A stretch of 64,000 nt of DNA, from the IMG/VR virus record IMGVR_UViG_3300003323_000851, positions 1 to 64,000 of that record; one strand, 5' to 3'. The notes below the pieces were generated by a model that saw nothing but the letters and a program-made list of their open reading frames with translations, had not been told where the DNA came from and made no database searches. Both the position numbers and the translations under genes were made by a program. Of this stretch, positions 10,239 through 43,097 are shown in pieces. The DNA comes from a virus. Numbering within the stretch: position 1 is the first letter of the stretch; each line of letters opens with the position of its first letter.

Positions 10239-10269
10239 CCCCTGCTTCGTTCTCGTAGCGGGGTTTTTT
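10239..10269 (+). terminator. hairpin plus T-run with plus-strand polarity between two minus-strand genes
   Basis: CCCC(T)GC/GCGGGG stem followed by a T6 run on the plus strand. Confidence 0.4.
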
Positions 10270-15766: not shown

Positions 15767-17340
15767 TATGCGTTGCCTATTTGTCCTAAAATAAAGTAGT
15801 CGTTGCCATCTGCGGTATTGAACGATCCAACAGCAGATCCGTTGTTAGGTCCGTCTGTGAACACATTGGTAGCCGTAGTGCTGTTGTCCGCGCTGGCCGT
15901 TGCCGTGTATTCCAGTCCCCCCGGATTTACGATTACATCAATGTCATCTCCGTTGTTGGCACTGAACGACCCGGCATTATCGGACGATACAGAAACAACC
16001 GTTGAGCCATTGCGCGTGATGGTCATATCGCCAATGCCCCCGCCAGTCGAGAACTGCCATAGTATTTCGTTGGTCGTTCCTTCTGTTTCAAAGTCTACGC
16101 TGTTGTATCCGCTTTCGTTCCCCACAGCGCAAACCGATTTGACCCGGAACGTGTATGCCGTATCCGGATCGAGGCCGGTTAGATTCACGCTGAGCGACCC
16201 TGTTGTACCGGAATCAACAACCGTTACGCCTTCAAGGACCTGCCAAGCATAACCAGACCCTGGTGCAGGAGTTGGTGCCGTCCAGGTGGCTGTGGCCGTT
16301 GTCGTAGTTATCGAGCTCATCGACGGCGTTCCGGGCACATTACAACTTCCGGTCGTATTAAAATTGCCACTGCTGTAGCTGGATTCGCTCACCCCCGCCT
16401 CACACAGCGATTTTACCCGGAATGTATACGTCTCTCCGCCAATCAGACCCGTAAGGTTTACCGATGTGCTGCTGGTCGTGCCGGACGTAACCAGCACAGC
16501 GTCTTTGAACAGTTCCCATGCGTAGCCATCATCCGGCACAGGATCAGGCGGTGCCCAACTGGCGTTAGCCGTCGTAGCCGTAATGCTGGAGAAACTCACT
16601 GTACCCGGAGCGGTGCACGCTGGTGCAGGCTCGCCGCCGGGTTCTATTTCAAATACAAGATCGTTGCTTTCGCCGTCAATACCGTTTTCACACACCGCCC
16701 AGACGGTGACCGTATGCGGCCCTTCGGCCAGACCGCTCAGCGGAATATTACCGCTTGTACCGGGGCCGAATATCACCAGTCGCTCGCCGCCGTCAATACT
16801 GTATTCCAGCCTCGCCGCACCGCTCACGCCACTGTAGGCAATGAATGCCTGGATGCCGCTGTCGGGATCGCCGGCGGTGATTTCGATGGATTCGATGGTG
16901 GCTTCACAAATAGTGGTGCTGTCGGCAATGGTATAGGCGCCGTCCCCGGTCATTTCAAAGGCAGACGAGGCAAATCCCGTGGGAGCACCGGTCAGGGTGC
17001 TGGTTTCGATCAGGGCATTGCCAGTTATTGTGGTTACGAGTGCCGTCACGTCGTCAGTAAAGATCATCCGAAACGGAACGGCCAGCATTGGAAGTTGGTA
17101 TTCACGCAGCAGATAAATAGCCACCGGGCTTGTTTCCTGCAGTTCGATCAGTCCGTTCAGCGAAACAGAATACTGATGAGACTGGCCGCGCTTCTTTTTC
17201 CACACGCCGTCGCCCACAGTCCGCACGTCTTTCAGTTCGGTCGTGGTGGTTATGGAACAGGCAGTAGCGCACAGGAACGGGTAGTAGTCTCCGTCCTTTA
17301 GAATTGTAAGCAGTGCGTTTTTGCCTTTGATGTATGCCAT
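15766..17340 (-). CDS. tail-tip protein with tail-tube-like N-domain and Ig/FN3 repeats
   Basis: Two FN3 repeats: PGT.S.SSIT.TTA.A.W..P.P.P..GYAW......V..SGTT.S.SVNLTGL....YTFRVKS.C. The gene sits after the distal tail protein gene. Confidence 0.65.
   Translation of the reverse strand: MAYIKGKNALLTILKDGDYYPFLCATACSITTTTELKDVRTVGDGVWKKKRGQSHQYSVSLNGLIELQETSPVAIYLLREYQLPMLAVPFRMIFTDDVTALVTTITGNALIETSTLTGAPTGFASSAFEMTGDGAYTIADSTTICEATIESIEITAGDPDSGIQAFIAYSGVSGAARLEYSIDGGERLVIFGPGTSGNIPLSGLAEGPHTVTVWAVCENGIDGESNDLVFEIEPGGEPAPACTAPGTVSFSSITATTANASWAPPDPVPDDGYAWELFKDAVLVTSGTTSSTSVNLTGLIGGETYTFRVKSLCEAGVSESSYSSGNFNTTGSCNVPGTPSMSSITTTTATATWTAPTPAPGSGYAWQVLEGVTVVDSGTTGSLSVNLTGLDPDTAYTFRVKSVCAVGNESGYNSVDFETEGTTNEILWQFSTGGGIGDMTITRNGSTVVSVSSDNAGSFSANNGDDIDVIVNPGGLEYTATASADNSTTATNVFTDGPNNGSAVGSFNTADGNDYFILGQIGNA
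16081..16611 (-). repeat. tandem FN3-domain repeat (2 copies) inside the CDS
   Basis: aa 244-330 and aa 335-420 align over their whole length. Similarity is high by eye; identity was not computed. Confidence 0.7.
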
Positions 17341-22359: not shown

Positions 22360-22785
22360 CTATGGGGTTATGTCAATAGTACCAATCCCGGTGAGGGTGA
22401 ACGTAAACTGTATCACTTGGGATGTTTGGAACTGAAGTTCCAGATCAGTTACATACGCTGAACCCTGGTGGTAGAAATGCACCCCGATTGAACCGGTACC
22501 CGGATATTGACAACGGAATAGCACGGTCTCTTCGTTTTTCCAGGCAGTTAGCAGCCGGTTATAGGTCACCTGCGAACTGGTTGGGTTCGTGCTACATACG
22601 GCTGTGCCATTGGGGTTGAATGTTTCTGATCCTAAGCCAACCTCTGTACCGCAGAATGTCTCTGTGACATTGGTTGCCTTCGACAGCGGCATGTTGTACT
22701 GGTTCAGACACACCAACGTCTGGTATGTGCTGCCGTTGTTAAAGGATAGTTCCAGGGGAACAAGTGTTGATTGTATGCCCGCCAT
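22360..22785 (-). CDS. major tail (tube) protein
   Basis: 141 aa and beta-rich, in the canonical position upstream of G/GT. Confidence 0.7.
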   Translation of the reverse strand: MAGIQSTLVPLELSFNNGSTYQTLVCLNQYNMPLSKATNVTETFCGTEVGLGSETFNPNGTAVCSTNPTSSQVTYNRLLTAWKNEETVLFRCQYPGTGSIGVHFYHQGSAYVTDLELQFQTSQVIQFTFTLTGIGTIDITP

Positions 22786-23762: not shown

Positions 23763-24103
23763 CAGCGTTCTTCATTCAGCACAAAATAGTAATACCGTAA
23801 TTTTTGATCTATCAGTTCAAAGCTATCAATAGTAAAGAACATATTGTCGATCACTACCTTGACACTTTTCCCCAAGTCGTTGGTAAGTGTGTTTTCAAAC
23901 CGCACGAACAACTCCCACTGTGACTCCAGTAATGCCTCACCGAACGATTGCGACCGGTTGCCGCGCTTCTTACGCAGCATGCCACGGGTGGTGCACAGAA
24001 TGTCGTAGTCGTCTTTCTTACCTGCACCAAGCTGCGTCGGGCTGTTCTTCTCGAACCGCACGATCTGGCGTAGCTTCCCTATTTCCGGCGCTTTCACAGC
24101 CAT
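23762..24103 (-). CDS. head closure / head-tail adaptor protein
   Basis: 113 aa, called on size and position. IGKLRQIVRFEK...DDYDILCTTRGMLRKKRG resembles head-tail joining proteins. Confidence 0.6.
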   Translation of the reverse strand: MAVKAPEIGKLRQIVRFEKNSPTQLGAGKKDDYDILCTTRGMLRKKRGNRSQSFGEALLESQWELFVRFENTLTNDLGKSVKVVIDNMFFTIDSFELIDQKLRYYYFVLNEER

Positions 24104-24663
24104 GACATGACTTTATATTTTGATGCGAATAATTCCAGCGCCTCATCCAGCGATTTAGCCCGATCGGCCCCGTTTTGCAGGCTTGTCAGCGCCTCATCCC
24201 CCCGATGTTCGTACAGGTAGGCAATGATCCGGAGCAGGTCCAGCTTCAGCGATGCATTCGACACCATATCCATCGGACCCGCCGTATAAGTCACCCGGAA
24301 CCGGCCGGCCGCAGCCAGGCACAAAAGATTGCCGTCAAGCGTATAGTCAATATACGCCTCGTACACCGTTCCATTCCGGTAAGTAACGCCCGTAATAGCC
24401 GCAACTGGCCCGTACGGAAGTTCCTGATCGGTATATATGTCGGCCTGCATGACCAGCGTCTTGGCCACCATGCTGATGTTGCAGAACATCTCCACTCCGC
24501 TGCGTGCCTGGCTGATCAGGGCAGTGATCTTCGTGTCGTCGTCATTGAACGTAATGTTCAGCCAGTCTTTCACCTCGTCCAATGTCACCGGTTCTGTCAC
24601 ATCGGGCGCCACAGTAGGCGTAATGCTGTAGATGCAGTTGGGCTTATACCGGCAGCTATACAT
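24094..24663 (-). CDS. head-tail connector protein (gp6-like)
   Basis: VTLDEVKDWLNITFNDDDTKITALISQARSGVEMFCN is the typical gp6-like connector N-terminus. Confidence 0.65.
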   Translation of the reverse strand: MYSCRYKPNCIYSITPTVAPDVTEPVTLDEVKDWLNITFNDDDTKITALISQARSGVEMFCNISMVAKTLVMQADIYTDQELPYGPVAAITGVTYRNGTVYEAYIDYTLDGNLLCLAAAGRFRVTYTAGPMDMVSNASLKLDLLRIIAYLYEHRGDEALTSLQNGADRAKSLDEALELFASKYKVMSWL

Positions 24664-25723
24664 AGTTGATGCGGGGTTGAGGTTTCGGTATTTTGTTTCG
24701 GGCCGCGTTGATAATGAAATCTTCCAGATCGTTTAGCCGGTGCACGGGGTCAAGTTCACGCGACCTGTCACGGCACTTCGCCGACTGTTTGGCGTACCGT
24801 TTCAGGTCATCCAGCGCCCGGATTTGCTTCACCAGCGGCTCAATATCGTAGGAATCGCCATCGTCGCTCAGAACAGTCCCTGTGCGCTTGTCGCGGTCAA
24901 TAGGACCGCGTTCGGGGATGTACAGGCCTGCTTTGCCACAGTTTTCTTTCAGGCCGGATGTTGGCGTACAGATCACAGGGATACCGTTACACATAGCCTC
25001 TGTTGCTGTTCTACCCCACGATTCGTAGCGGGAGGGCATGATCAGGATACGGGTTTGCCGGTAAACATCCAGCACATTCGGGTCATTGGGTCTGATCGTT
25101 ACGTTGCTGGGTTGGTCCACCACCTGACCGATCTGCGCAGGTTCGCTGTAGGCGCCGCGGACGCCGAGGAACTTCTTATCAGGCATGGCTGAAGCCAACC
25201 GGCGCAGGATCTTACCGCCTTTGTTCTCATCCAGATTGATCAGGGTAATGTATTCATTCTTGCCGGGGTCGGAGCATACGTCGTATTTGCGCCAATCGCA
25301 GGGCGGCGTGAATACCATTGAAGGGTGCTTATAGTTCAGTTCCTTCGCAATCCACTCGCTGTTATACACCACATAATTGTGCCTGCGGGCGTTGATCACG
25401 CTATCGTAGGGGTACGAGTTGTGCACAAAGTTGATCACCGGCCGTTCAACGATCTGGCCCATCTGTATCGCGTGTTGCGTAAAGTCCAGGTGCGTCATGA
25501 TCACATCGGCCCAACGGTAACCATCAACCTGCGTGGCGGGGCCAACCACTTGCACGCCCTCGTATTCATAGGGAACACGGATATTGTGCATACCGGCCTG
25601 CATTAGCATGATACGGACTTGGTGGCCTTTGCTGATAAGGAATTTGTTGATCTCGTGCAGCATCGCCTCGCTTCCACAAGCGTGATGAGGCAAATACAGG
25701 TGTATGACGGCGAGTATTCTCAT
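24656..25723 (-). CDS. GT-B fold glycosyltransferase (GT4-like)
   Basis: MRILAVIHLYLPHHACGSE at the N-terminus. EX7E region LIMPSRYESWGRTATEAMCNGIPVICT. Confidence 0.8.
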   Translation of the reverse strand: MRILAVIHLYLPHHACGSEAMLHEINKFLISKGHQVRIMLMQAGMHNIRVPYEYEGVQVVGPATQVDGYRWADVIMTHLDFTQHAIQMGQIVERPVINFVHNSYPYDSVINARRHNYVVYNSEWIAKELNYKHPSMVFTPPCDWRKYDVCSDPGKNEYITLINLDENKGGKILRRLASAMPDKKFLGVRGAYSEPAQIGQVVDQPSNVTIRPNDPNVLDVYRQTRILIMPSRYESWGRTATEAMCNGIPVICTPTSGLKENCGKAGLYIPERGPIDRDKRTGTVLSDDGDSYDIEPLVKQIRALDDLKRYAKQSAKCRDRSRELDPVHRLNDLEDFIINAARNKIPKPQPRINYV

Positions 25724-26517
25724 GCTGTCTGTAGTTTGCTTTCCCAGTTGACAACCTGCCAGCCGGGGTTATAAATGTCATCACCGGTGATATTGGTGTA
25801 GGCCTTGCCGAACCAGGGTTTGGGAGCTACTATGATTTTGTCCGGTGCTTCTCCCAAAGTAGCGGCCATCGCACTGTATGAACTGTTGCCGATGATAAAG
25901 TGGCGGCAGGATTTCATGAGGCGGAAATCATCAAGATAATTGCCAGATGCTACATGCGCCACACCGCTGCTTATATCAAACATCTCATTTGCTGCAGCAG
26001 GATCATCACTAAAAACGATATATGCCGTTCCTTTAGGCATTATCTTCATAGCCGCTTTATAATATTCCATTCCTAAACGCGGGTGATACGCATTATCGTA
26101 GTCGCCAAGCCGCACGTGCACGGCGCAATAATCGTTCTGCGGATACTCATCCTTCATCTTAAAATACCATTTCACCTCATCCAGACAGTGCTCAAAGTAC
26201 TTCAGCGACTGCATGTGACCCGCCAGCGACACGCTTTGCTTTATCCGCACATCCTGATAGCCCCAATGGATGTTATATTCAGGCAGCACGGGGCCTTTGT
26301 AAACCGGTAACGGGTTGACGAAGTACTTTTGTACATCAATATCCTCCGTGCTACCAAACCGCTCCGCATGGTCGTAGTTCTTCCAGTAAGGGAATGCGAA
26401 ATCACAGCCGTTCCTGCGGGCAATACCGATCGTACCGGCAATCTGGTACATTTGGTTCGCCAGACGACCATAACGGCCGAGAGAGTTGAAGGTTAATATG
26501 GGGCGGCTGGAGGTCAT
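25720..26517 (-). CDS. GT11-like glycosyltransferase (alpha-1,2-fucosyltransferase family)
   Basis: Motifs GRLANQMYQIA, HVRLGDY, FSDDP and IGNSSYSAMAA match the four GT11 signature blocks. Confidence 0.75.
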   Translation of the reverse strand: MTSSRPILTFNSLGRYGRLANQMYQIAGTIGIARRNGCDFAFPYWKNYDHAERFGSTEDIDVQKYFVNPLPVYKGPVLPEYNIHWGYQDVRIKQSVSLAGHMQSLKYFEHCLDEVKWYFKMKDEYPQNDYCAVHVRLGDYDNAYHPRLGMEYYKAAMKIMPKGTAYIVFSDDPAAANEMFDISSGVAHVASGNYLDDFRLMKSCRHFIIGNSSYSAMAATLGEAPDKIIVAPKPWFGKAYTNITGDDIYNPGWQVVNWESKLQTA

Positions 26518-27146
26518 GCTGTCTGTTTTAACCAGTCCCTGCGAAAATATTCGCCCGCATTACTCACACCATCGCCCTCAATCTCCGGGAACTTCTTCCT
26601 GTACTTAGAATCTACCAACACAAGATTACCGGTATGGGCCAGGATAAAGTATCCTTTTTCGATGGCAGCTTTTGCCATGGTCAGGTACGAGGCGCCCTGC
26701 TGATCGCTTTCGTGCTCTACATCGGGCGGAAAACCGCTGTTAATTTCGACGATGATTACTGCGGGCTTTGCCTGCAAGGCTCGTAGTATCTGCACATCAA
26801 TACCGTCCGTGTCGATGGATAGCACATCGGTATCGGCCGGCACAAACGCATTCACATTGTCGGCTGTCACGAAGCTGCACGCGCATTTCACACGATCTTT
26901 GATATCCTGGTAATACTCGCAGGCCGCTACGTGCAAATCCCAGTCCGCTTCGATAAATTTTCCCGACCAGCCCAGTTCGCGGATGAGATAGGCGGTGTTA
27001 CTGCACCACTGGCCGTTATTGCCGCCAATCTCTACCGATTTTTTACCTGGTAGTTTGATGCGGTTCAGTATTTCAAGTAGTAAACCCTCCTCGCCATTCT
27101 GGCTCCAGGTAATGTTACGGGCGTACTTGTTGGTGAATGTCAGCAT
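26514..27146 (-). CDS. FkbM-like SAM-dependent methyltransferase
   Basis: SVEIGGNNGQWCSNT and LSIDTDGIDVQIL...VIIVEIN resemble FkbM-family blocks. Confidence 0.5.
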   Translation of the reverse strand: MLTFTNKYARNITWSQNGEEGLLLEILNRIKLPGKKSVEIGGNNGQWCSNTAYLIRELGWSGKFIEADWDLHVAACEYYQDIKDRVKCACSFVTADNVNAFVPADTDVLSIDTDGIDVQILRALQAKPAVIIVEINSGFPPDVEHESDQQGASYLTMAKAAIEKGYFILAHTGNLVLVDSKYRKKFPEIEGDGVSNAGEYFRRDWLKQTA

Positions 27147-27373
27147 TACTCCGTTTTATGATCCAGTGTTGTGATACCGTCGTTTGGGTCGTTGGTCGCC
27201 GGCTTCGTCTCCGCCTTCACATGCGTTGCCCCGGTCATGATCTTGCTTTCGTCCGGTTGTTTCTCAGGAACGGGCTCGGCAAGCAGTAACTTGTACTTAT
27301 CGTTGCTTTCAAGACGGCCTGAGCTGAAATAGTCCTGATCCTGGTGGACGCCTTCGTTTAATGCTGTGTGCAA
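27146..27373 (-). CDS. hypothetical protein
   Basis: 75-aa ORF sharing 1 nt with the downstream methyltransferase gene. Confidence 0.45.
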   Translation of the reverse strand: MHTALNEGVHQDQDYFSSGRLESNDKYKLLLAEPVPEKQPDESKIMTGATHVKAETKPATNDPNDGITTLDHKTE

Positions 27374-27458
27374 TTACATGCGCTCTTTAGCGGGCAGTTC
27401 GATGAATAATTTGATGATCTCTTGTTGTTTCGTGGTCATGATTATAAGTTTTGCGTGT

Positions 27459-28055
27459 TTATAACTTCTTCTTCCAGCTCTGCCACACGAACGGATAATC
27501 CCACATCAGTTCATGACTATTGTTCAATTTCTCTGCAATCTCATTGTACCACTCTTGGTAAGGTTGATTTTCCACGGTGTGAAACTGGATTTGCAGGAAC
27601 TGTACTCTTTCAATCGCCCCTGTTTCAATGAGGTGCGGTATAATGCTGTACTCGCTACCTTCCGCGTTGCATTTAAGCAACGCAATCGGTGGCAGCCTAA
27701 ACACCAACTCTGATGTGTCAATCTCCTCAAATTCGCGCCGGTTTTCCTGCTCATAGATAGAGGTAGCAAATGCACCGCCGCCCATCTCCATCTTGCCGTT
27801 TTTGGTTCCTGCCGCAGCCCGGATTATCTCACGGGCAAAGCCAAAACCCCTAATAGCGTCTGTAGGCTCCACGCAGACGGCCCACAATCCTTTCTCTTCA
27901 TTGCGCTGATGGCAGATAAGCCGTTGTACGAACTCTCCCTCGTACGCCCCGATATCGAGTATAACGCCGCCTTCCGGCAGATCATAGTCGTATCTCAGGT
28001 CTTCGAGCCCCTTATCATACCACGTCTGTAAATTTTGTTTGTCAAGTCCAATCAT
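27459..28055 (-). CDS. FkbM-family methyltransferase
   Basis: Start moved to ATG 28053-28055 (MIGLDKQNL). GGVILDIGAYEGEFV and LLKCNAEGSEYSIIPHL are FkbM blocks. Confidence 0.65.
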   Translation of the reverse strand: MIGLDKQNLQTWYDKGLEDLRYDYDLPEGGVILDIGAYEGEFVQRLICHQRNEEKGLWAVCVEPTDAIRGFGFAREIIRAAAGTKNGKMEMGGGAFATSIYEQENRREFEEIDTSELVFRLPPIALLKCNAEGSEYSIIPHLIETGAIERVQFLQIQFHTVENQPYQEWYNEIAEKLNNSHELMWDYPFVWQSWKKKL

Positions 28056-28071
28056 TTTTTTTCGTTTTGGG

Positions 28072-28773
28072 TTAGTATTCGCTATTTCTTTTCCTGTGGT
28101 GGTGAAATAAGGCTGGGTAGTTATCGCTGTACCCGTCCTTTGGATAGGTGAATGCGCCGTTGTTGTAGATGGCGGGCCACCAGTGCAATGGTATTCCATA
28201 CATATCAGCCAACACGGTTAAGATCGCTTGATCGTGCCGGTTATCTTTGAACTCCGGGTGATTTGGGGCCTTACTTGGCGAATCATCTATCAATCCTGGT
28301 ACCAGACACCAATGTAGCCACTTCTCAATTAAGTTCCTTGCCGTTGGTCGTACCAGTATTACACTTGCCTGACACTGTTTGCCATTGGGGTGACAGCCAA
28401 TTGCCTCCATGATATCCATCTTGCACCAGTGTTGATGATCGTACATATTCCCAAATAGCAAAATATTCCAGTTACCGGGCATGAGATAGTGAAGTGGTTT
28501 TATCAAATCAACCCCCACATCCATATAAATAAGCGTATCTCCTTCTTTTACCTGCTTCAGCGCTTCCAGTATCACAAACGCTTTCCAGGCCCAGTACCCT
28601 GATCCTCGTGGCTGATCCAGCAGTTCCTTGTTCTGTTCATAGAACTCTGTCTGCTCCAGTGCGGCCCGCGTCCACTGATACACCTTGTCAACGCCATGCT
28701 TTAGCGCCGATTCCTTGCACCGTTGCGCGCTGATAGACATGTCGGGGGTGTGGTAGGTTACCAGATGTATCAT
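28072..28773 (-). CDS. putative nucleotide-sugar-dependent glycosyltransferase (uncharacterised family)
   Basis: RGSGYWAWKAFVILEAL...GDTLIYMDVGVD resembles a family seen in LPS and capsule loci. Confidence 0.45.
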   Translation of the reverse strand: MIHLVTYHTPDMSISAQRCKESALKHGVDKVYQWTRAALEQTEFYEQNKELLDQPRGSGYWAWKAFVILEALKQVKEGDTLIYMDVGVDLIKPLHYLMPGNWNILLFGNMYDHQHWCKMDIMEAIGCHPNGKQCQASVILVRPTARNLIEKWLHWCLVPGLIDDSPSKAPNHPEFKDNRHDQAILTVLADMYGIPLHWWPAIYNNGAFTYPKDGYSDNYPALFHHHRKRNSEY

Positions 28774-29363
28774 ACCAACTTACCCTCGCTCTCTTTAAAA
28801 ACCTGTGAATAATCGGTGTAACATCCCCATATGCCGCTAACCCGTGACCGCTGAACGGCGCACATCGGTTTGCAGACGTACGCATTGAACCGGTGCAGGT
28901 TTGCCCCCAGCCAGTTGTCATACATCACCTCCGATTCGTTCGGGTAGTTCTCCAGTATCCATTTCACGATCGGACGGGTATAGGCCACTGCATGGGTCGT
29001 CCACGCATCGGTCACCTTCCACAGGTGGGACGAAACACGTGTTACGTCACCCCGGATATTGCAGCCCAGATAGAACACGTCCCAATCTTCGGGTAATTCG
29101 GTCAGGGCTGGCCACAGGTGATCCATGTTGACGAAATGTACGTCATCCTCCAGGAATAACAGGCTGTGTGCTCCGCTGTCAAAGAACTTCTGCAAGATGG
29201 CTTTTACGCCAAGATTGAACGACTGGTGCGGGCCTATCGCGGGCACCGCATTGAACTGTTCTGCATAGATTCCCCATATTTTAAACTCGACCTGCGCCTT
29301 TTGCCATTCCTGGCCGCCGGTCGTCAGGCATATTTTTAGGGGAAAGAAATCGAAAGCATTCAT
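28770..29363 (-). CDS. GT25-like glycosyltransferase
   Basis: SLLFLEDDVHF plus WDVFYLGCN resemble GT25 LPS-core glycosyltransferases. Confidence 0.6.
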   Translation of the reverse strand: MNAFDFFPLKICLTTGGQEWQKAQVEFKIWGIYAEQFNAVPAIGPHQSFNLGVKAILQKFFDSGAHSLLFLEDDVHFVNMDHLWPALTELPEDWDVFYLGCNIRGDVTRVSSHLWKVTDAWTTHAVAYTRPIVKWILENYPNESEVMYDNWLGANLHRFNAYVCKPMCAVQRSRVSGIWGCYTDYSQVFKESEGKLV

Positions 29364-29389
29364 GTGAGTAGTATTTGTGTCGAAGATAT

Positions 29390-29417
29390 AAAAAAAGGAC
29401 GGGCTTGCACCCGCCCC
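29390..29417 (-). terminator. intrinsic terminator immediately after the major capsid gene
   Basis: The minus strand reads GGGGCGGGTGCAAGCCCGTCC followed by a T7 run. Confidence 0.75.
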
Positions 29418-29448
29418 TTGCGATATATACTAACCCACTATGAAAAGA

Positions 29449-30678
29449 CTATGTGGTGCCAGCAGGCGTGTAGATGAACGCGTCTGTACGCAGGATAGCC
29501 AGACCTACGCGGGCTTCAGCTTTCACAGTGATCAAGTTACGGATCACGTTGTCCTGGTCCTGCTCGTACATGTTCACACTCAGTCCGTCCGTTTGGATAA
29601 TCTTGGCCTGTGTCCAATCGCCGATAATCATCTGGTTGGCGCCGATGTTGGTTGAGTTGGTGCGGAACAGCGGAATACCTACGATCATCACGTCGCCGCT
29701 TGGGCTGATGGTTACAGCGCCGCCGGCAGGCAGTGAGTAATCGTTGGGCTTGGTGTTCAGGATTTTGGCCCATACCTGGTTGGTAACAACCACACCGTTT
29801 GCTTCGTAGTCGTCTTCTGCCAGCGCAGCAATACCCTGAATTACTTTTTCTACGCTCACCGTAGAGGTTACGCCGCTCGTGTTGCCACTGGCCGCAGTGA
29901 TCAGCGCCTGGAAGAACTTGTAGTCCTCAGCACGCAGGTAATCTTCTACCAGCGAAGCGGGCAGGTAAGACTGCATGAAAGGCAAATCCTGCAGCATCTG
30001 CTTGGCGATACGGGCATAACCAGCGAGGTAGTCGGCGGTCACCGTTACTTCAGTCAGATCCTTGTCCACCTGAGACTTCAGTGCACCGGGAGTTTGGGTC
30101 AGGAAAGAGCCTTCACCGGTGGGCTTGTTCTCGCGGTAGAACTTCCAGATGCCGGTTTCGGAGTTGATCACATCCACCAGGTCGCGGAAGTGCAGTTTAC
30201 GACGGCCACGGATGGCGGGCGTCAGGCTGTAGGTAGCCACTGCATTACCGGTCAGGTTGTTGGCAACGGTCATGTCACCAGCAGCTTTGATATCGAAGCC
30301 GTAACGCACTTTGGCGCTGTTACCGGCGGCCTTAATTTCGGCTACGCGGTTGGTGAACTCCTGCTTCAGCAGGCTGACAGCGGTTACTATTTTCTCGCCG
30401 TCAACATTTGCCATGCGGCCGCCTTTGGCTTTCAGTTCGAGTACTTCGTCCTGAAGCTGCTTGATGGTCTGGCCATTGGTTTTGGCGTCTTCGTTCAGTT
30501 GGGTTACCTGCTTAACGTATTCAACGTTGGCTTTGGTAACTTCTTCCACCTGCGTTTCGAGTTTGCCGATCTGTTCTTTTGCCTCTTTCTCGATCTTGTC
30601 GAGTTGGGCCTTGTTGCTCTTTTTCAGATTGGCTACATCACTGGCCAACCCTTCGAGCACATCTAATTCATCTGCCAT
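29449..30678 (-). CDS. major capsid protein (HK97 fold) with N-terminal coiled-coil delta domain
   Basis: Start moved to ATG 30676-30678 (MADELDVLEGL). Helical delta region LKKSNKAQLDKIEKEAKEQIGKLETQVEE. Located after the protease gene. Confidence 0.85.
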   Translation of the reverse strand: MADELDVLEGLASDVANLKKSNKAQLDKIEKEAKEQIGKLETQVEEVTKANVEYVKQVTQLNEDAKTNGQTIKQLQDEVLELKAKGGRMANVDGEKIVTAVSLLKQEFTNRVAEIKAAGNSAKVRYGFDIKAAGDMTVANNLTGNAVATYSLTPAIRGRRKLHFRDLVDVINSETGIWKFYRENKPTGEGSFLTQTPGALKSQVDKDLTEVTVTADYLAGYARIAKQMLQDLPFMQSYLPASLVEDYLRAEDYKFFQALITAASGNTSGVTSTVSVEKVIQGIAALAEDDYEANGVVVTNQVWAKILNTKPNDYSLPAGGAVTISPSGDVMIVGIPLFRTNSTNIGANQMIIGDWTQAKIIQTDGLSVNMYEQDQDNVIRNLITVKAEARVGLAILRTDAFIYTPAGTT

Positions 30679-30703: not shown

Positions 30704-31717
30704 TTAATCCTCCATCGCCATCTTGATGCGGGCAATGAGGGCTGCTTTTCTTAACGCATCCTTACTTCTGCTGGCTTCCGGCTGACTGCCTGATTTGATC
30801 AGGTGGTTGCATTCTGCGCATTTAATGCTACCGTCCTCGCCGGTCTGTGCAACGGAGTGCGTGCCGCACTTTTTGCACTTGACCATAGACGAGGTGTCAG
30901 TGGTTGTAGCGGTATCAGAATTTATTTGTAAAAGAGAATTAAGCGATTTTTGAGCGTCCTTGATACATTCGTCGGACGCGGAAGAATTGCGGATGAAGCG
31001 CTTCAGTTTCGATACCTGGCTGTCCATTTGCTCCTTGTTGCCATAGCGCAGTTCACTACGCAGGCCGCCAACGATCTCGGCGTGTCGGGAGATGAACCAC
31101 ATAATCCAGGTGTACAGGTCGGAATCAGGATCGAGTTGGCTTGCAACAGCAAAAGCCTCTTGCAGGCTGTTCATACAGTTACCGATCAGCGTGGTCAGCA
31201 GACTTTGTTCGGTATCAGACAGGGATTTTATTTTGATAGGCGCTTTTTCAATCAGCGACTTCATAGTGGCTACCGGGCCGCTCTGCTCGTGCGCGCCCCA
31301 ATGGGTGAGCACAGACACTTCGTGGTGTTCTACTTCAAAAAAGTCAAGGCCCTTGCCTTTGATCTCTTTAAACTTCTTTGGCACAAAACCGAATGATGCG
31401 GCTACGATAGTGCCGTAATCCAGTTTTTCCAGAATATCATTACCCAGTGTGGACTTGTCATGGCCCACCTGTGCGTAGGCGTGCTCGCTGTCATCCCACA
31501 GGCGGATAATTTTACCCGGTGCCAGGTTCTTGTCATGGTTCAGGAAGTAGCGCACGCGCTTGCTGTTTTCCTTCCAGGATTTATCGAACATACCCCGGTT
31601 ACTGCGGTCTTGATCGCTGTCGAGCGATTTGTATGTAGCAAAAGCAATGACGGATTCCCGCTTTTGCAGGTCAAAATCCTTTAATTCCAGTTCAATTGCC
31701 TTTTTCTGCATGGTCAA
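30704..31717 (-). CDS. HK97-family prohead protease with long C-terminal extension ending in a zinc ribbon
   Basis: S78-like N-terminal half (FLNHDKN...ASFGF...EVSVLTHWGAHEQS). C-terminal VKCKKCGTHS...IKCAECNH. Confidence 0.75.
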   Translation of the reverse strand: MTMQKKAIELELKDFDLQKRESVIAFATYKSLDSDQDRSNRGMFDKSWKENSKRVRYFLNHDKNLAPGKIIRLWDDSEHAYAQVGHDKSTLGNDILEKLDYGTIVAASFGFVPKKFKEIKGKGLDFFEVEHHEVSVLTHWGAHEQSGPVATMKSLIEKAPIKIKSLSDTEQSLLTTLIGNCMNSLQEAFAVASQLDPDSDLYTWIMWFISRHAEIVGGLRSELRYGNKEQMDSQVSKLKRFIRNSSASDECIKDAQKSLNSLLQINSDTATTTDTSSMVKCKKCGTHSVAQTGEDGSIKCAECNHLIKSGSQPEASRSKDALRKAALIARIKMAMED

Positions 31718-32541
31718 TTTATTGAAGTTGTTACTTGTTGTTGTGTTTTTCGTATGAGCCTGCCGTTTGCATCGCGCGCGGCTCTATGGGCTTGACTACA
31801 GCGACAGTTGCAGACGTTTGCTGCACTTGCTGTTGGATCTCCGGGCCCTTCCATCATGTCAACACCTTTCGGATGTGGAACCTGGAACCGCGCATCATTG
31901 TCTATAACCTCACCGTCTACCTTGCGGTGTCCGTGACGGGTACGGTGATCATTTGCCGCTATCCACTCTTTAACCGTTTCCCATTCTGTGTCGCGGTTAG
32001 CCAATTGACGCCCTACAAAAGCGCCTTTGGCCGTTTCGGTGCGGGCTATCAACCTGGCACGGAATGCCAATAGATCAGGACTGGTTAACTGGTTCTCTAT
32101 CCATTCAAACGACTGTCCTTGTTCGGTTGCCTGCGTCAGGATAGCGAGTATCTGCTGCCGGGTGGTCTCGGTGATCTGCTGTACCAGTTGGAACAGGTCG
32201 GTCGTGAAATAGGCGATAATGTCCGCCGCCCATTGCAGGTTGAAACCAAAACCGGCTTTCTGAACACGTGCGCTACGAGCAATCTCCCGGTACGCCTTAC
32301 GGCCAAAGAACAAACCCGACTCCTTGTGCAAGTCGGATATAGCTTCGGCCAGTGCCTGGTTAGAGACCACGGTATATAAAGAACTTTTTGCGGCGGTCAG
32401 CCCGCGCTGTTTCGCATCCTCCACAAACTCCGTCACCATACTGCGCAGCGCTTGGTAAATCGGTTTGATATACTTACCAGCAATCCGGTTTTGTTGCCGG
32501 ATGGCGAGGGCGCTGTATTCGCGGCGTTGTTGCTGGGTCAT
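31714..32541 (-). CDS. head morphogenesis protein (SPP1 gp7 / Mu F-like)
   Basis: LIARTETAKGAFVGRQLAN...WIAANDHRTRHGHRKVDGEVI...CNCRCS. Confidence 0.8.
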   Translation of the reverse strand: MTQQQRREYSALAIRQQNRIAGKYIKPIYQALRSMVTEFVEDAKQRGLTAAKSSLYTVVSNQALAEAISDLHKESGLFFGRKAYREIARSARVQKAGFGFNLQWAADIIAYFTTDLFQLVQQITETTRQQILAILTQATEQGQSFEWIENQLTSPDLLAFRARLIARTETAKGAFVGRQLANRDTEWETVKEWIAANDHRTRHGHRKVDGEVIDNDARFQVPHPKGVDMMEGPGDPTASAANVCNCRCSQAHRAARDANGRLIRKTQQQVTTSIN

Positions 32542-32723
32542 TTTGGTAGCGTTACATGAATAGGCGGCTTATCCGGCGATTCGATGTAGGTAAACGCATC
32601 AATGCCATTGGCTACGATTGTCTCAAAGTCTGGCATGCGCTCATCAAGAATAGCCTTGGTTTTTGCCATTGCTTCAGGCGAACTACTATTGACGGCCCAA
32701 AATATGATTACAGGTTTTGCCAT
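32538..32723 (-). CDS. hypothetical protein
   Basis: Start moved to ATG 32721-32723 (MAKPVIIFW), because the GTG start in the ORF track lies inside the terminator hairpin. Confidence 0.45.
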   Translation of the reverse strand: MAKPVIIFWAVNSSSPEAMAKTKAILDERMPDFETIVANGIDAFTYIESPDKPPIHVTLPK

Positions 32724-32731
32724 ATACAAAC

Positions 32732-32770
32732 AAAAAAACGCCACCCACCTCTTGCGAGATAGATGGCGTT
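32732..32770 (-). terminator. intrinsic terminator
   Basis: AACGCCA/TGGCGTT 7-bp stem followed by a T7 run on the minus strand. Confidence 0.6.
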
Positions 32771-32825
32771 CGTGACGCTCTTAATTTATTTTAACGAACC
32801 GCTGGCGGTCTGGCCGCTCGGGGTT

Positions 32826-33721: not shown

Positions 33722-34026
33722 CAGTCCTCGTATTGAACGGTTTTGGGGAATAAGAGTTCCCGCAAATTCTCTACACGCCTCAGCTTGCTTTGTTTGACAA
33801 TCTTTATCATGTTCCGGTTCTCTGTGTCAGATTCATAAAAGTTAACAGTTGGTACATCAGCATATATACCCAATGGGATATCATTAAGGGTTCTATCGAA
33901 ACTGGTATTCAGGTCACGTTCGATCTGCTGTAGCATAGTGCGAACCTCTTCAAGGTCGCTCGCGTCTATGTTGGCCCAACTGGCAAAAGTTAACAGGCGT
34001 GGTTTTGGTTCTATAAATTGGTTCAC
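33721..34026 (-). CDS. hypothetical protein
   Basis: 101-aa ORF overlapping the portal gene stop by 4 nt. Confidence 0.5.
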   Translation of the reverse strand: MNQFIEPKPRLLTFASWANIDASDLEEVRTMLQQIERDLNTSFDRTLNDIPLGIYADVPTVNFYESDTENRNMIKIVKQSKLRRVENLRELLFPKTVQYED

Positions 34027-35462
34027 ACCACCGGATTTTTAGTTCCATTTTTGCTCGGCTGCGGCGTCTTCGCCGGTACCGCATAATCACTCAGCCCAAT
34101 GTCGGTCATATCGAGGCCTGGGTCATCGAGCATACTAAGCGGCTGGCGACCGGATGGCGGCCACGGTTCATCCATGGTCGGGTCGCTGGACTTATCGTAA
34201 CCCATCATCTCCAGCGCCTGGTTAGGTGATATCCACCATGCCGTATCCAGCCACTCGGCGAGTTCCTTCATGTTATCCTGCATCTCAGGCAGTTCGCTAA
34301 AGTCGGAACAGATCACCGCTATACCCACCAGCTTGAACGCCTTCAGCAATTGCCGGTTCAGTTCGTCGTCCAGTTCTTTACAGGCCGGGATAATCTTGTT
34401 CGATACCCAACCTTTTTGGGCCTGCTCTTTATTGGCAAATGTAGTCTCGGTGTTATATAGTTCATACGGAACGCCCAGTAGTGCACACAGTTCCTGCCAG
34501 GACATTTTCTTGCCCTCCAACAGTTGCAGATCAACCGATGTACCGCCCAGATCAAGGTAGCCCAGTTTACCGGCACCGAAGATGGACGCCACGGCGCCCT
34601 TGATATCGTTGTTGTTGATCTTTCGGTCTACCACACTGCGTATCTGGCTTTCCTGCGTAGCCGTCACGCCCTTGGTTTCTTCCCCATACAACACGCCTTT
34701 GGCGCCATCGTTCTGGTACATCCGGGTAGCGCCCAGTGTCGCATCGTTGTTCTGTTGCAGGGTAGCCGTACCCGGTTTCAGCGGTGACATGCCGCGAAGG
34801 TGTTCTTTGGTCGAAGCGTCGAATTTCAGGTTGATCGACTTCCAGTGGATGATATCGTTCTTGCGGATTGGGATTTTCTGGCCGCCGGCATTCAGGATAT
34901 AACCAGCCACGCCGAACAGGTTTGCCGGGTCGGGCACTACATTCATCTGGTCAGATGGCAGCGGGTACATTTCCAGTACTGGCATCATATCCTGCTGCAG
35001 GTCGGTCTTACCCTCTACATCACCCCTGTTTAGCCAGATAAACGCCTCGCCCGTTACTTTGAAATATGCCCGCACCTGTTTGAAGAAAGCCGCCTGGCCC
35101 TGGTAGGGATTGGGGCGTTCGAGTAGTTTGGACAGGTCATTGGTCAGCCGCTCAGCGCCCGCCACGTCCTTCAACCGCATCGGGATACGCTTCTTGTTCT
35201 TGGCTGCAATGCTTTTCGCATCGTACACATACCGGGGGATAGACGCGAACTTATCCGCGTCGTCATTCACGATCGCATATACCGCCGCATTGGCATTGAA
35301 CCCGTCGTCGATCGCCCTGGTCTGCGTCATGTCCGGCAGCACCTCACGGGTGCCGATGTTGAGCAGGAAATTACGGCTGCGGGAAAACAGGCTGGTAAAC
35401 CAGTTCAGCGCCGCGCTCAGCGGGCCGGTTATCGGGCGTAGTATGCGTTCGGTTTGCGGCAT
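34023..35462 (-). CDS. portal protein
   Basis: 479 aa, directly downstream of TerL, with an acidic C-terminus. Size and position are typical of HK97-type portals. Confidence 0.8.
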   Translation of the reverse strand: MPQTERILRPITGPLSAALNWFTSLFSRSRNFLLNIGTREVLPDMTQTRAIDDGFNANAAVYAIVNDDADKFASIPRYVYDAKSIAAKNKKRIPMRLKDVAGAERLTNDLSKLLERPNPYQGQAAFFKQVRAYFKVTGEAFIWLNRGDVEGKTDLQQDMMPVLEMYPLPSDQMNVVPDPANLFGVAGYILNAGGQKIPIRKNDIIHWKSINLKFDASTKEHLRGMSPLKPGTATLQQNNDATLGATRMYQNDGAKGVLYGEETKGVTATQESQIRSVVDRKINNNDIKGAVASIFGAGKLGYLDLGGTSVDLQLLEGKKMSWQELCALLGVPYELYNTETTFANKEQAQKGWVSNKIIPACKELDDELNRQLLKAFKLVGIAVICSDFSELPEMQDNMKELAEWLDTAWWISPNQALEMMGYDKSSDPTMDEPWPPSGRQPLSMLDDPGLDMTDIGLSDYAVPAKTPQPSKNGTKNPVV

Positions 35463-35477: not shown

Positions 35478-36653
35478 TTAAAAAGTAATTATTCTGCGCG
35501 CTTCGAGGTGTTTGGTGAATACGCCATACCTGATTGCGTCCATGCTATGGTCCATAAACTTCACCGGCTCGTCTGATGGTTTGACCTTGCCGTCGGTAAT
35601 GTCGGTTTTCGTTTTCCACTTGTAAGATCTGATCTCTTTCTGCACGTTGACCGACCGCCTAGTGATATACAACGGCATAGACTTCACCTTGCGGATGCCC
35701 TCGGTAACGTCCTTGTCCGCCGCCATCGCATTGTATCCGGCGCGGTTCAGTTCTTCAATGGTTTTAGGTTCTGCTGCATCACAGTATATCTCACCGGTTT
35801 TGGTCATACCCATTGCCTTGTACTGCTCAATCAAGTCGCTGGTGGTGAGCTTGGTTTCGTAGATCAGTTCGTCTACATAAATAGCGCCCTCGTAGAATTC
35901 TATCCGGACCAGGGCAGACGGAACGTTGTAACCAAAATCCTGCCCGTAAAACACTTCCCCTTTCATAGGTAGGTCATCGCACAACTTCCAGTGGGTATAT
36001 ACCGTTTCGGTAGACTTACCACGCAGGCCCAGGCCGTAGATATTCCAAAGATTCTCATCTGCATCCCGCAGGCTTTCTATTTCAGCAATGATCTCCGGCG
36101 TCAGATTGCCCCGATTGTTCTTGTAGGTAGAATGGATGATGCGGTTGCCCAGCTTATCTGCTTCCTCATATACCCAACTATACTCATCAGCAGGGTTGTA
36201 ATCAATGAAGATGGTTTCGTTGGTCCGGATAGCCAGTTGCTTATAGGTCTCATAGGGAATCAGGTTGGCTTCGTTGATGTACAAGATATCCCGACCGGGC
36301 CCGTGCACTTTACCAATGTCTTCAACCCCAAAAAACTCGACATAGCTGCCGGTCTTTGGGAAGTTATAAATGTTATCGGTCTTGTTGAAATGCTTGTCGT
36401 TATAAACACCCGTTTTTTGCAGGGCATTCAGAAAGTCGCGTCGGGCGCCACGCTTCAGGTGCGGTAGTGACGGACTGCAAACGGTGATGGTCTTGGTCGC
36501 AATGTTGGGGATATAAAGCGATAGGAGCTGCGTAAGACTTACTGTTTTGCTGGACCGGCTGCTGCCTTCGTTGGCGATCAGGCGGTGTTTACGGCCCTCC
36601 CAGGCGGCTTTATTCGCCTCGAATACTGGGGTGTATCTAACCCTCGCCTCCAT
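35478..36653 (-). CDS. terL: terminase large subunit
   Basis: ATPase motifs ANEGSSRSSKT (Walker A-like) and DILYINEAN (Walker B). Nuclease-half acidic motifs CDAAEP and DHSMDAIRY. Confidence 0.85.
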   Translation of the reverse strand: MEARVRYTPVFEANKAAWEGRKHRLIANEGSSRSSKTVSLTQLLSLYIPNIATKTITVCSPSLPHLKRGARRDFLNALQKTGVYNDKHFNKTDNIYNFPKTGSYVEFFGVEDIGKVHGPGRDILYINEANLIPYETYKQLAIRTNETIFIDYNPADEYSWVYEEADKLGNRIIHSTYKNNRGNLTPEIIAEIESLRDADENLWNIYGLGLRGKSTETVYTHWKLCDDLPMKGEVFYGQDFGYNVPSALVRIEFYEGAIYVDELIYETKLTTSDLIEQYKAMGMTKTGEIYCDAAEPKTIEELNRAGYNAMAADKDVTEGIRKVKSMPLYITRRSVNVQKEIRSYKWKTKTDITDGKVKPSDEPVKFMDHSMDAIRYGVFTKHLEARRIITF

Positions 36654-40662: not shown

Positions 40663-41385
40663 TCAAAACAACCGCTCCTGCACTCCGACTACCTGCCCCT
40701 TGCTGTCGAATACGACGCCCTGCATTTCTTTGAACCGCTTCTCCTGCGCCTCGAAGTAATCTGGATCAAGCTCATAGCCGGTAAAATCAAAACCCATTTT
40801 CCACGCTGCGATGCGGCTGGATCCGGAACCAAGGTGCGTGTCCAATATCTTGTCGCCGGGCTTGGCGTAGTTTTTCAGGAGCCAGGAGTATAAGGCGACG
40901 GGTTTTTGGGTCGGGTGGATGCGGGTTTCGTTGAGCGACTTGTTACCCTGCATTTTGGTCGGATTGTTTAGGCCTTCGCCTTGGTTCATACCGTTCCACA
41001 GGAACCGGAATATCCGCACGCTGTCATGCATACTGCAGGAGGCGATTTCGCACTGCGAGAACGGGGCGCCATCGTTGCACTTATCCCATACAATACGGCC
41101 CACACAATGGTGAAAGGTGAAATAGTTGATGCCCCAGATAATTTGGTTCTTTGATACGCGCACAACTTCGTCCAACCATTTTTGATCCGGTATTTGTTTG
41201 TCCCACTGGGGGATATTGTAATTGCCGCGTTTGACGCCTATTGACGACTGCTTATCACCAAAATAACCAAGTTTATCTACGCCCGGGAAATACGGCGGGT
41301 CACAAATAGCGAGATCAAAATAATGATCAGGGTACTCCCGCATCGCTTGAAGGCAGTCGCGGTTGTATGCGTTGCTTGTGCTCAT
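40663..41385 (-). CDS. DNA methyltransferase (N6-adenine/N4-cytosine, DPPY type)
   Basis: Motif IV ICDPPYF, then IHPTQKP and motif I ILDTHLGSGSS. Confidence 0.85.
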   Translation of the reverse strand: MSTSNAYNRDCLQAMREYPDHYFDLAICDPPYFPGVDKLGYFGDKQSSIGVKRGNYNIPQWDKQIPDQKWLDEVVRVSKNQIIWGINYFTFHHCVGRIVWDKCNDGAPFSQCEIASCSMHDSVRIFRFLWNGMNQGEGLNNPTKMQGNKSLNETRIHPTQKPVALYSWLLKNYAKPGDKILDTHLGSGSSRIAAWKMGFDFTGYELDPDYFEAQEKRFKEMQGVVFDSKGQVVGVQERLF

Positions 41386-42548: not shown

Positions 42549-43097
42549 TTATTGAAAATATTTAGATTTGTATTGTCGTTTACCATTAATCAGCCTGCTG
42601 ATTGTAGGCTGACATACAGAAAAGTAGCTCGCTATTTGATTTTGTGTACATCCCTCTCTGATCATTTTATGAACCATAAATAAGTCGGCTTGTGTAAAAA
42701 TTTTTGGGTGCTTTATGGCGGAGGGGTTTGAAAATCCATATTCAATGGCGTGTAGGACGTTCTCTTGAGCAGTACTCCATTCTAAATTATCTTTAGCATT
42801 ATTGGTTTTATCACCGTCTTTATGATTAACGTATGGTTTGTTGTCTGGATTGAGATGAAAGGCAAGACAAATAAGCCTATTTACACGTCGCGTTTTAGTA
42901 ACCCCTTTTAAACAAAGATTTACACATAGGTAGCCATTCCTTTTATTGAGCGTAGGGGATAGTATACGCCCCTTCCTGAAGCACTTTAAATCGCCGCCTC
43001 GCGAATGGTTGATTGTTCTATCCACACTCCGGATTGCTCCTAATTCACTGGCCTCGTAAAAACCCTCGTAGCCGGGAATTGCCCTCCATTCTTCCAT
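42549..43097 (-). CDS. HNH homing endonuclease (NUMOD4 plus HNH_3 plus C-terminal HTH)
   Basis: Start moved to ATG 43095-43097. MEEWRAIPGYEGFYEASELGAIRS (NUMOD4) and VNHKDGDKTNNAKDNLEWSTAQEN (HNH). Visibly A+T-rich. Confidence 0.8.
   Translation of the reverse strand: MEEWRAIPGYEGFYEASELGAIRSVDRTINHSRGGDLKCFRKGRILSPTLNKRNGYLCVNLCLKGVTKTRRVNRLICLAFHLNPDNKPYVNHKDGDKTNNAKDNLEWSTAQENVLHAIEYGFSNPSAIKHPKIFTQADLFMVHKMIREGCTQNQIASYFSVCQPTISRLINGKRQYKSKYFQ

Follow-up and report, generated by a model that had tools for sequence, protein, structure and literature searches.

A capsid-linked glycosyltransferase and methyltransferase cassette in a clade of uncultivated siphophages, a candidate module for virion glycosylation

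To our knowledge, glycosylated phage particles have so far been shown only for a few mycobacteriophages, in which the virion glycan shields the particle from antibodies. Freeman et al. 2023 reportedly describe virion glycosylation in Corndog (Cluster O), Che8 (Cluster F1), and Myrna. Cluster O phages are reported to glycosylate both capsid and tail tube (PMC11600133), and the subunits of these two proteins are reported to carry the glycans at their C-termini (PMC12619734). Among eukaryotic viruses, the chlorovirus PBCV-1 builds its capsid glycan with virus-encoded soluble glycosyltransferases and two sequential methyltransferases, and this machinery (A064R, A061L, A111/114R) is cytoplasmic and independent of host machinery of the endoplasmic reticulum type (PMC9614988). 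Here, we examine a cassette of glycosyltransferase and methyltransferase genes that lies between the major capsid gene and the gp6-like head-tail connector gene of an uncultivated phage, IMG/VR record IMGVR_UViG_3300003323_000851, of which positions 1 to 64,000 (the window, 64,000 nucleotides in all) were analyzed. The cassette occupies the same position in all relatives examined and varies among them in a nested manner, and we lean towards a role in cytoplasmic, late-expressed glycosylation of virion proteins, primed by its GT4-family enzyme.

The first-pass annotation of the window, made from the letters alone, had proposed seven co-oriented genes on the minus strand, and all seven open reading frames (ORFs) are found where it had placed them, with a terminator ahead of the first and an 8-nucleotide (nt) overlap between the last and the connector gene (24656-24663). 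With two of the frames delimited anew, the cassette reads as follows in operon order:

29394-29419, minus strand: intrinsic terminator or attenuator, 3' of the capsid gene and ahead of the cassette
28770-29363, minus strand: ORF1, GT25-like GT-A glycosyltransferase by model and profile, 197 amino acids (aa), invariant E72-D-D74
28072-28773, minus strand: ORF2, predicted retaining GT-A glycosyltransferase of GT6/GT8 type by model, 233 aa, with IYMDVG; always together with the GT11 gene
27459-28055, minus strand: ORF3, predicted FkbM-like S-adenosylmethionine (SAM) methyltransferase, 198 aa, start corrected; dispensable, being absent from the related locus L003 and several others
27146-27439, minus strand: ORF4, broken small accessory gene, of which the 75-aa ORF first proposed (27146-27373) is the 3' part
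26514-27146, minus strand: ORF5, predicted FkbM-like SAM methyltransferase, 210 aa, with orthologues that match PF05050
25720-26517, minus strand: ORF6, predicted GT11-type glycosyltransferase (alpha-1,2-fucosyltransferase family), 265 aa, with HVRLGDY; PF01531, phrog_2644
24656-25723, minus strand: ORF7, predicted GT4 glycosyltransferase (GT-B, retaining), 355 aa, with EX7E; PF00534; core of the module, overlapping the connector gene by 8 nt

ORF3 had been listed at 27459-28199. Alignments to four orthologues begin at the ATG at 28055 (residues 45-50 of the listed frame), and a start at 28199 would give an overlap of 128 nt with ORF2. The count of seven is too high: six are enzyme genes, whereas the remaining 75-aa ORF belongs to a small, non-conserved gene that starts at ATG 27439 and is broken by an in-frame TAA at 27374-27376; the stop could mark a pseudogene, an assembly error, or a read-through site. 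The sole relative of this gene is a 95-aa ORF in L003 (L003:13159-13446), 44% identical over 54 residues that span the stop, with no counterpart in the other close relatives compared, and the gene stands outside the conserved pathway. The match to this small non-endonuclease ORF also ruled out a homing endonuclease remnant. The six enzyme genes are kept at 40-73% identity in the five closest relatives, at levels equal to or above those of the structural proteins, which rules out chance ORFs. The terminator, located between the capsid stop codon and ORF1, is the hairpin GGGGCGGG-TGCA-AGCCCGTCC, its stem pairing GGGGCGGG with CCCGTCC, followed by seven T. A hairpin with a T-run is present 3' of the capsid gene in 32 of the 66 related loci, where its position is kept and the stem sequences differ.

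The proposed content of four glycosyltransferases and two FkbM-like methyltransferases is borne out, by different routes for different genes. The two genes closest to the connector are recognized by profile searches, in agreement with their first assignments as GT11-like and GT4-like. ORF7 matches PF00534 (43.5 bits against a cut-off of 26.4, E 3e-11), PF13692 (43.8 bits, above its cut-off), and phrog_26352 (E 2e-58), and its EX7E motif (E234-x7-E242) is invariant in six orthologues. ORF6 matches PF01531 (50.9 bits against a cut-off of 23.9, E 1.7e-13, model positions 163-296) and, over its full length, phrog_2644 (E 5.9e-45); its HVRLGDY fits HxRxGD[YF], which we take to be motif I of alpha-1,2-fucosyltransferases. 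We assign ORF6 to the GT11 family by sequence, with a GDP-fucose (guanosine diphosphate fucose) donor and an alpha-1,2 linkage predicted from family membership only.

For ORF1 to ORF5, sequence-only searches against Pfam, NCBIfam, PHROGs, and PDB returned little or nothing. The FkbM calls for ORF3 and ORF5 are carried by their relatives, while the window proteins themselves stay under the Pfam cut-off: PF05050 is matched by 5 of 5 ORF3 orthologues (best E 3.4e-7), by 6 of 6 ORF5 orthologues (best E 6.7e-5), and by 25 of 40 wider ORF5 homologues (best E 6.2e-9). Near the N-terminus, both families have a glycine-rich SAM-binding motif, an invariant D-x-G-A-Y-x-G-E in ORF3 and E-x-G-x-x-N-G in ORF5, and neither protein has a PDB sequence match. 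Both are predicted to be FkbM-like methyltransferases; a paralogous relationship between the two was not detectable (BLASTP E 7.5, hhalign E 0.14).

ORF1 and ORF2, which have no family match in Pfam, NCBIfam, or PHROGs (for ORF1, at E up to 0.1), each represent a large unannotated family found mostly on phage-sized contigs. Models of both were built with AlphaFold from alignments of 36 (ORF1) and 38 (ORF2) sequences and compared by Foldseek, with predicted local distance difference test (pLDDT) scores of 95.4 and 94.8, respectively. The top eight matches of the ORF1 model are all COLGALT1/GLT25D1, the GT25 collagen galactosyltransferase (E 2.7e-10, template modeling (TM) score 0.71), followed by POMGNT1, bacterial beta-1,4-galactosyltransferases, PBCV-1 A064R, and STIV A197. 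A profile of the 36 homologues reaches COLGALT1 at E 0.003, with the invariant L-E-D-D aligned to LVFEDD. The earlier proposal of a GT25-like protein with the motif LFLEDDV is consistent with this fold and alignment, but the Pfam GT25 model is not matched at its curated cut-off, and because no Pfam, NCBIfam, or PHROG family is matched, we describe ORF1 as GT25-like rather than as a demonstrated member of GT25.

ORF2, previously put down as an uncharacterized glycosyltransferase-like protein, has no PDB sequence match and adopts a GT-A fold in its model. The model matches the GT8 enzymes XXYLT1 and LARGE1 (E 1.8e-7) as well as LgtC and, about equally, the GT6 enzymes BoGT6a, alpha-1,3-galactosyltransferase (alpha3GalT), and the ABO transferases (E 7e-7, TM 0.62-0.63), such that the fold cannot tell GT6 from GT8. 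It is predicted from the model to be a retaining GT-A glycosyltransferase of GT6/GT8 type that lacks a canonical DXD motif, having instead an invariant Y-x-D-x-G with glycine in place of the second aspartate. Its close structural relatives (TM ~0.8) are found in uncultured phages, cyanophages, chloroviruses, and other giant viruses. No membrane segments or signal peptides were found in the six enzymes, and in no cassette protein does the hydropathy over 19 residues exceed 1.2.

The distribution of the cassette was followed with a pattern search based on the GT4 alignment, which found relatives encoded on 311 IMG/VR contigs, of which the best 80 were read. In all 80, as far as the contig includes the flanking genes, GT4 follows the capsid gene and precedes the connector. 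Except in L029 and L044, it is within ~150 nt of the connector, often overlapping it; L089, a contig from a metagenome-assembled genome (MAG), has a gap of 849 nt. The long contigs that we reached through the capsid relatives P0002, P0004, P0015, P0043, P0112, and P0114 (74, 68, 59, 57, 49, and 48% identity) all carry capsid, cassette, GT11, GT4, and connector genes. Every relative that we examined has the cassette, down to a capsid identity of 31%, and the suggestion that it might be a presence/absence indel does not hold within the clade: it is missing solely from the distant cultured outgroups, phi10:1 and 11b, which have small unknown ORFs between capsid and connector. Because it is kept throughout the clade while these outgroups lack it, the cassette is best described, from gene content, as a clade-defining acquisition at a permissive junction and not as a sporadic indel. 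Its place within the head-tail module is both physical, as first proposed, through gene overlap and co-orientation, and evolutionary, through its retention in relatives.

When gene content was compared over the 66 loci that have both capsid and GT4 genes, we observed five arrangements upstream of GT4:

~29 loci: a class-I SAM methyltransferase (PF13489, E 2.6e-8), or nothing in L037
6 loci: ORF1
10 loci: ORF1, ORF2, and GT11
6 loci: ORF1, ORF2, GT11, and ORF5
15 loci, plus the window itself: ORF1, ORF2, GT11, ORF5, and ORF3

This content is strictly nested, with 0 exceptions. ORF2 and GT11 always co-occur, ORF5 is found only with ORF2 and GT11, and ORF3 only with ORF5. The GT4 protein is also the best conserved of its neighborhood, with a median identity to the window of 50% versus 36% for the capsid, 31% for the connector, and 39% for the tail tube, and its identity exceeds that of the capsid in 54 of 57 loci. 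GT4 divergence tracks capsid divergence (Spearman rho 0.51, over points that are not independent), a correlation that fits vertical co-inheritance with the structural module.

In the simplest variant (L031, L055, L053, L088, and ~25 other loci), the PF13489 methyltransferase that precedes GT4 is unrelated to the FkbM-like genes, and in L053, two such genes stand in tandem. For the stretch of ~600 nt that follows the capsid gene in these apparently GT4-only loci, we had considered a diverged ORF1 and rejected it, since the gene found there is this class-I SAM methyltransferase. In other relatives, homing-endonuclease genes (NUMOD3, NUMOD4, GIY-YIG) are inserted at differing points of the cassette without displacing the enzymes, except for ORF3 in L003:

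L002:7447-8157: homing-endonuclease-type insert
L003:12626-13159: homing-endonuclease-type insert
L004:11336-12325 and 13618-14307: homing-endonuclease-type inserts
L005:11329-12132: homing-endonuclease-type insert

The window has an HNH/NUMOD4 gene of its own at 42549-43256, 32% identical to the one in L003.

Full-length GT4 relatives, 34-38% identical, also occur in actinobacteria. A prophage in the chromosome of Streptomyces sp. NBC_01590 has the gene order terminase, SPP1-type portal, VG15, capsid, GT4, tail tube, and the sole match in a cultured phage is gp20 of Streptomyces phage TurkishDelight, located between the major capsid and major tail genes. In both, as in the window, the GT4 protein is homologous over its full length (28-34% identity) and its gene comes directly or three genes after an HK97-type capsid gene and before the tail genes. 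Unlike the window, they have a single glycosyltransferase, which in TurkishDelight is duplicated within one protein, and no accessory GT-A, GT11, or FkbM genes. In the NBC_01590 prophage (L092:9000-11050), the capsid stop codon directly adjoins the start of the GT4 gene, which is 34% identical to its counterpart in the window, and the capsid ends in ...APAGS, reminiscent of ...TPAGTT in the window. The subfamily is not exclusive to phages, since one relative lies among cellular genes in a Nocardioidaceae MAG.

Among the described systems, Corndog is the closest in make-up. Its head-assembly module encodes a methyltransferase (gp35) and glycosyltransferases (gp36-38), two genes upstream of the major head gene, and it shares with the window soluble phage-encoded glycosyltransferases and a methyltransferase inside the head module of a siphophage with an HK97-type capsid. 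In Corndog, however, these genes lie between the portal region and the capsid gene, whereas the window cassette follows the capsid gene and overlaps the connector gene. The pathway predicted for the window is also larger, with four glycosyltransferases and two methyltransferases, in a host phylum that is probably different. The Cluster F1 (Che8) set, unlike the window cassette, lies near the right genome end (PMC11256854).

The comparison with PBCV-1 is one of logic and fold. Both GT-A models match domain 1 of A064R, and the window, like PBCV-1, combines predicted galactosyl-, xylosyl-, and fucosyl-transferase activities with two methyltransferases, which in PBCV-1 act in fixed order on the terminal sugar. 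This similarity is at the fold level only, and PBCV-1 differs in being a eukaryotic giant virus with multi-domain fusion enzymes, N-linked glycans, and a double-jelly-roll capsid protein. The T4-like cyanophages S-SM2, P-SSM2, and S-SRM01 encode a homologous GT11 (31-37% identity) beside a GT25 gene, and S-SRM01 and P-TIM68 carry ORF2 relatives. In contrast to the window, these pairs have no GT4 gene linked to the capsid gene and are located in islands of auxiliary metabolism that also contain pstS, phoA, hli, and genes for sugar-nucleotide synthesis. In S-SM2 (L123, record positions 159988-163289), two GT11 genes and one GT25 gene stand in a row beside heptose/nucleotide-sugar genes, pstS, and phoA.

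The Gtr and Oac cassettes of lysogenic conversion consist of integral membrane proteins, have attachment and integrase genes as neighbors, and are expressed in the prophage state. They share with the window cassette only that phage-encoded enzymes modify glycans: the window cassette has no membrane proteins, no integrase or Gtr-type partner was found among the ~50 larger ORFs of the window that were scanned, and the cassette region shows no anomaly in G+C content. The first-pass annotation had set the cassette apart from inserts of this type on the grounds of its position, and these features agree. Overall, the module resembles Corndog-type systems in make-up and chlorovirus capsid glycosylation in logic and fold, without being homologous, by the searches reported below, to the Corndog enzymes.

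We favor, with some reserve, the reading in which the cassette assembles a short oligosaccharide, methylated and probably fucosylated, on an acceptor encoded by the phage itself; most likely this is a virion protein, capsid and/or tail tube, that would receive the glycan before assembly or in the course of it. The argument for a phage-encoded target is that the module is kept better than the capsid across divergent phages and recurs at the same place in another phylum, which requires a substrate that is itself conserved, unlike the surface glycans of hosts. As the only universal member, and one that can occur alone, GT4 would act as the primer and place the first sugar on the acceptor. The nested gene content suggests the order of the extension steps: the GT25-like enzyme would extend the chain, probably with a beta-linked hexose, the GT11 and GT6/GT8-like retaining enzymes would then work as a coupled pair, and ORF5, followed by ORF3, would O-methylate the sugars. 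That GT11 and the GT6/GT8-like enzyme are found only together suggests an acceptor made by one of them for the other; by analogy only, ABO-type GT6 enzymes need the alpha-1,2-fucosylated H structure. The two methyltransferases may act sequentially, as domain 3 of A064R and then A061L do on the PBCV-1 glycan (PMC9614988). Nucleotide sugars and SAM would come from host pools, and the scanned ORFs yielded no gene for sugar-nucleotide synthesis. Through the terminator that follows the capsid gene, the enzymes and the low-copy connector proteins would be expressed below the level of the capsid protein.

By analogy with the Cluster O and F1 mycobacteriophages, in which both proteins carry glycans at their C-termini (PMC11600133, PMC12619734, PMC11256854), the capsid (ending ...TPAGTT) and the tail tube (ending ...TIDITP) are candidate acceptors. 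The capsid C-terminal AGTT (window 29452-29463, minus strand) is kept in 72 of 120 homologues (P0001-P0120) while the four preceding residues vary freely, the tail tube motif D-I-T-P/A is kept across cassette types, and the actinophage capsids beside GT4 genes also end in ...PAGS or ...GSTS.

Several observations weigh against a virion target or against parts of the proposed pathway. The capsid C-termini of cassette-bearing phages are not uniformly Ser/Thr-rich (AGTT, YGSAS, and YGTTGT, but also LVGGA, FLYV, YGAI, and FIYN), and the cassette-free outgroups also have Thr near the capsid C-terminus. We accordingly rejected the AGTT tail as a cassette-correlated acceptor, and no sequence feature of an acceptor site that follows the cassette was found in the capsid or tube C-termini. 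The window enzymes show no homology to Corndog gp35-38, with no BLASTP match below E 0.01 and none with five profiles. The PF05050 scores of the window proteins, 16.0 bits for ORF3 and 22.4 bits for ORF5, are both below the cut-off of 22.7. ORF7 also matches PF20706 ("GT4 in conflict systems") above its cut-off, and the GT11 and GT25 genes of cyanomyophages lie in islands with sugar-nucleotide and host-metabolism genes, for which a role in modifying host lipopolysaccharide (LPS) is usually assumed.

The last of these points bears on the main rival explanation, in which the cassette remodels a host envelope glycan late in infection. The target could be LPS (O-antigen or core), the capsule, or an intermediate bound to lipid at the cytoplasmic side of the membrane, and the effect could be to hide receptors on cells undergoing lysis or to keep other phages out. 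Enzymes of the GT4, GT11, GT25, and GT8 types are typical of LPS and capsule synthesis, and the SGNH/GDSL and alpha/beta-hydrolase domains in the tail genes of the window suggest a polysaccharide receptor. In the "Gratiaviridae" phages of Bacteroides, a glycosyltransferase encoded between the portal and capsid genes has been interpreted as remodeling host glycans (PMC8008677). Nevertheless, this explanation is weakened, and we regard it as rather unlikely. The enzymes have no membrane segments, no flippase, polymerase, or integrase was found among the ORFs scanned, expression would be late, from the structural operon, and the region is of unremarkable G+C content. Moreover, genes specific for host glycans would be expected to be patchy, following host serotype, whereas this module is kept better than the capsid over 31-75% capsid identity and at the same position across phyla.

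Quite improbable, in our view, is another soluble target, such as a small molecule, a phage protein outside the virion, or a host protein, modified for instance to disable a defense or to take control of a process. In line with it are the PF20706 match and the Nocardioidaceae relative in its cellular setting, as well as the PDB profile matches of ORF7, which cover the donor domain only and leave the N-terminal, acceptor-binding half without informative relatives. The closest named relatives of ORF7 by NCBIfam, BshA and MshA, are small-molecule enzymes, likewise matched in the donor domain only. However, membership of the cassette enzymes in a defense system was rejected, as there was no match to defense-system models, the strict linkage to capsid and connector in all loci would be left unexplained, and a multi-step methylated oligosaccharide would be an unusual means to inactivate a host protein.

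Glycan hypermodification of the phage DNA, as in T4 or the 5-hydroxymethylcytosine-glycan pathways of metagenomic phages, is very unlikely: multi-sugar DNA glycans made by successive phage GT-A enzymes, some resembling PBCV-1 A064R, do exist, and the genome has two DNA methyltransferases, but the known DNA-glycosylating enzymes cluster with C5-methyltransferase/5mYOX or thymidylate-synthase-like genes (bioRxiv 10.1101/2023.12.21.572611), whereas both methyltransferases here are of Dam and N6/N4 types, the cassette, placed within the head-tail module, is remote from the replication genes, the acceptors of GT11, GT25, and GT6/8-type enzymes are sugars, and no thymidylate-synthase-like, TET/5mYOX, C5-methyltransferase, or other base-hydroxymethylation gene was found among the ORFs scanned, several of which have no Pfam match, such that this absence is not absolute.

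If the preferred reading of virion glycosylation is true, then such glycosylation would be widespread in environmental phages, given the core GT4 gene on 311 IMG/VR contigs, and its origin in a second bacterial phylum would have involved unrelated enzymes. The natural series of rising complexity would let each step be assigned genetically, and the GT4 gene between capsid and connector offers a simple genomic marker for such phages. There would also be consequences for phage stability, adhesion, recognition by hosts, grazers, or immune systems, and phage engineering. A more far-reaching version, which we put forward as speculation and consider doubtful as a whole, joins these elements: a large clade of uncultivated siphophages, probably on Bacteroidota, would have a vertically inherited, capsid-linked virion-glycosylation module in which GT4, shared with Streptomyces phages, represents a novel type of glycosyltransferase that primes proteins, and in which successive gene additions lengthen the glycan stepwise. 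The six-enzyme form would then make a fucosylated, O-methylated structure resembling histo-blood-group antigens, with a beta-hexose from the GT25-like enzyme, alpha-1,2-fucose from GT11, and an alpha-hexose from a GT6-like enzyme that needs the fucosylated acceptor. If true, virion glycosylation would for the first time be extended beyond actinobacteriophages, and the variants would form a natural series in which to follow the evolution of viral glycan coats. Our literature search, the coverage of which is incomplete, found no description of virion glycosylation, or of a capsid-GT4-connector arrangement, in Bacteroidota phages.

The ORF list and the Pfam and PHROG matches place the cassette in a late operon of typical siphophage type on the minus strand of the window, in which head-closure, HK97-gp10-like, tail tube, tape measure, and tail proteins follow the connector on the same strand. 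These genes and the two DNA methyltransferase genes are as follows:

35478-36653, minus strand: terminase
34023-35462, minus strand: portal
31714-32541, minus strand: MuF-like protein
30704-31717, minus strand: S78 prohead protease
29449-30678, minus strand: HK97-type major capsid protein (PF05065, E 4e-21), 409 aa from ATG 30678, ending ...TPAGTT
24094-24663, minus strand: gp6-like head-tail connector (adaptor) gene (PF05135, E 3e-10, and phrog_442), directly downstream of the GT4 gene
22360-22785, minus strand: putative tail tube protein, ending ...TIDITP; its orthologues show faint or weak Pfam Phage_tail_2 marks
40663-41385 and 46333-46788, minus strand: DNA methyltransferase genes, one of N6/N4 type and one of Dam type

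The capsid start agrees with the homologue P0001, which is 100% identical over 409 aa. The replication region encodes a DUF3987 primase-helicase-type protein, a protein with a DnaB N-terminal domain, Dam and N6/N4 methyltransferases, an HNH/NUMOD4 endonuclease, and a sigma factor of extracytoplasmic function (ECF) type. A nucleotide search against 50,697 phage records gave no match, and exact look-ups of the GT4 and capsid proteins of the window recovered no stored contig. The host is probably a member of Bacteroidota, since the nearest cultured capsids are those of Cellulophaga phage phi10:1 (38%) and Flavobacterium phage 11b (34%) and since related contigs were binned into MAGs of Taibaiella and Cyclobacteriaceae.

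In the structural region, the N-terminus of the capsid protein contains a coiled-coil region of ~115 residues that may serve as a scaffold, and the S78 prohead protease is extended at its C-terminus by a long stretch that includes a zinc-ribbon-like CxxC...CxxC segment. Another strong hairpin resembling a terminator (32736-32771, minus strand), with a 16-bp stem and a T-run, lies ~200 nt upstream of the MuF-like gene and overlaps the start of a 68-aa ORF (32538-32744). Tail-region proteins at 5383-6180, 6187-9348, 10268-11368, and 15766-17340 (minus strand) contain alpha/beta-hydrolase, PKD, GDSL/SGNH esterase, and fibronectin-III domains, which suggest that a polysaccharide receptor is bound or deacylated. 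Elsewhere in the window, the ECF-type sigma factor and a protein with a DnaA C-terminal helix-turn-helix are encoded at 56074-56553 (minus strand) and 53788-54204 (plus strand), respectively, and an AAA/nSTAND-type NTPase gene at the contig end (821-2245, plus strand) may be a defense or counter-defense gene.

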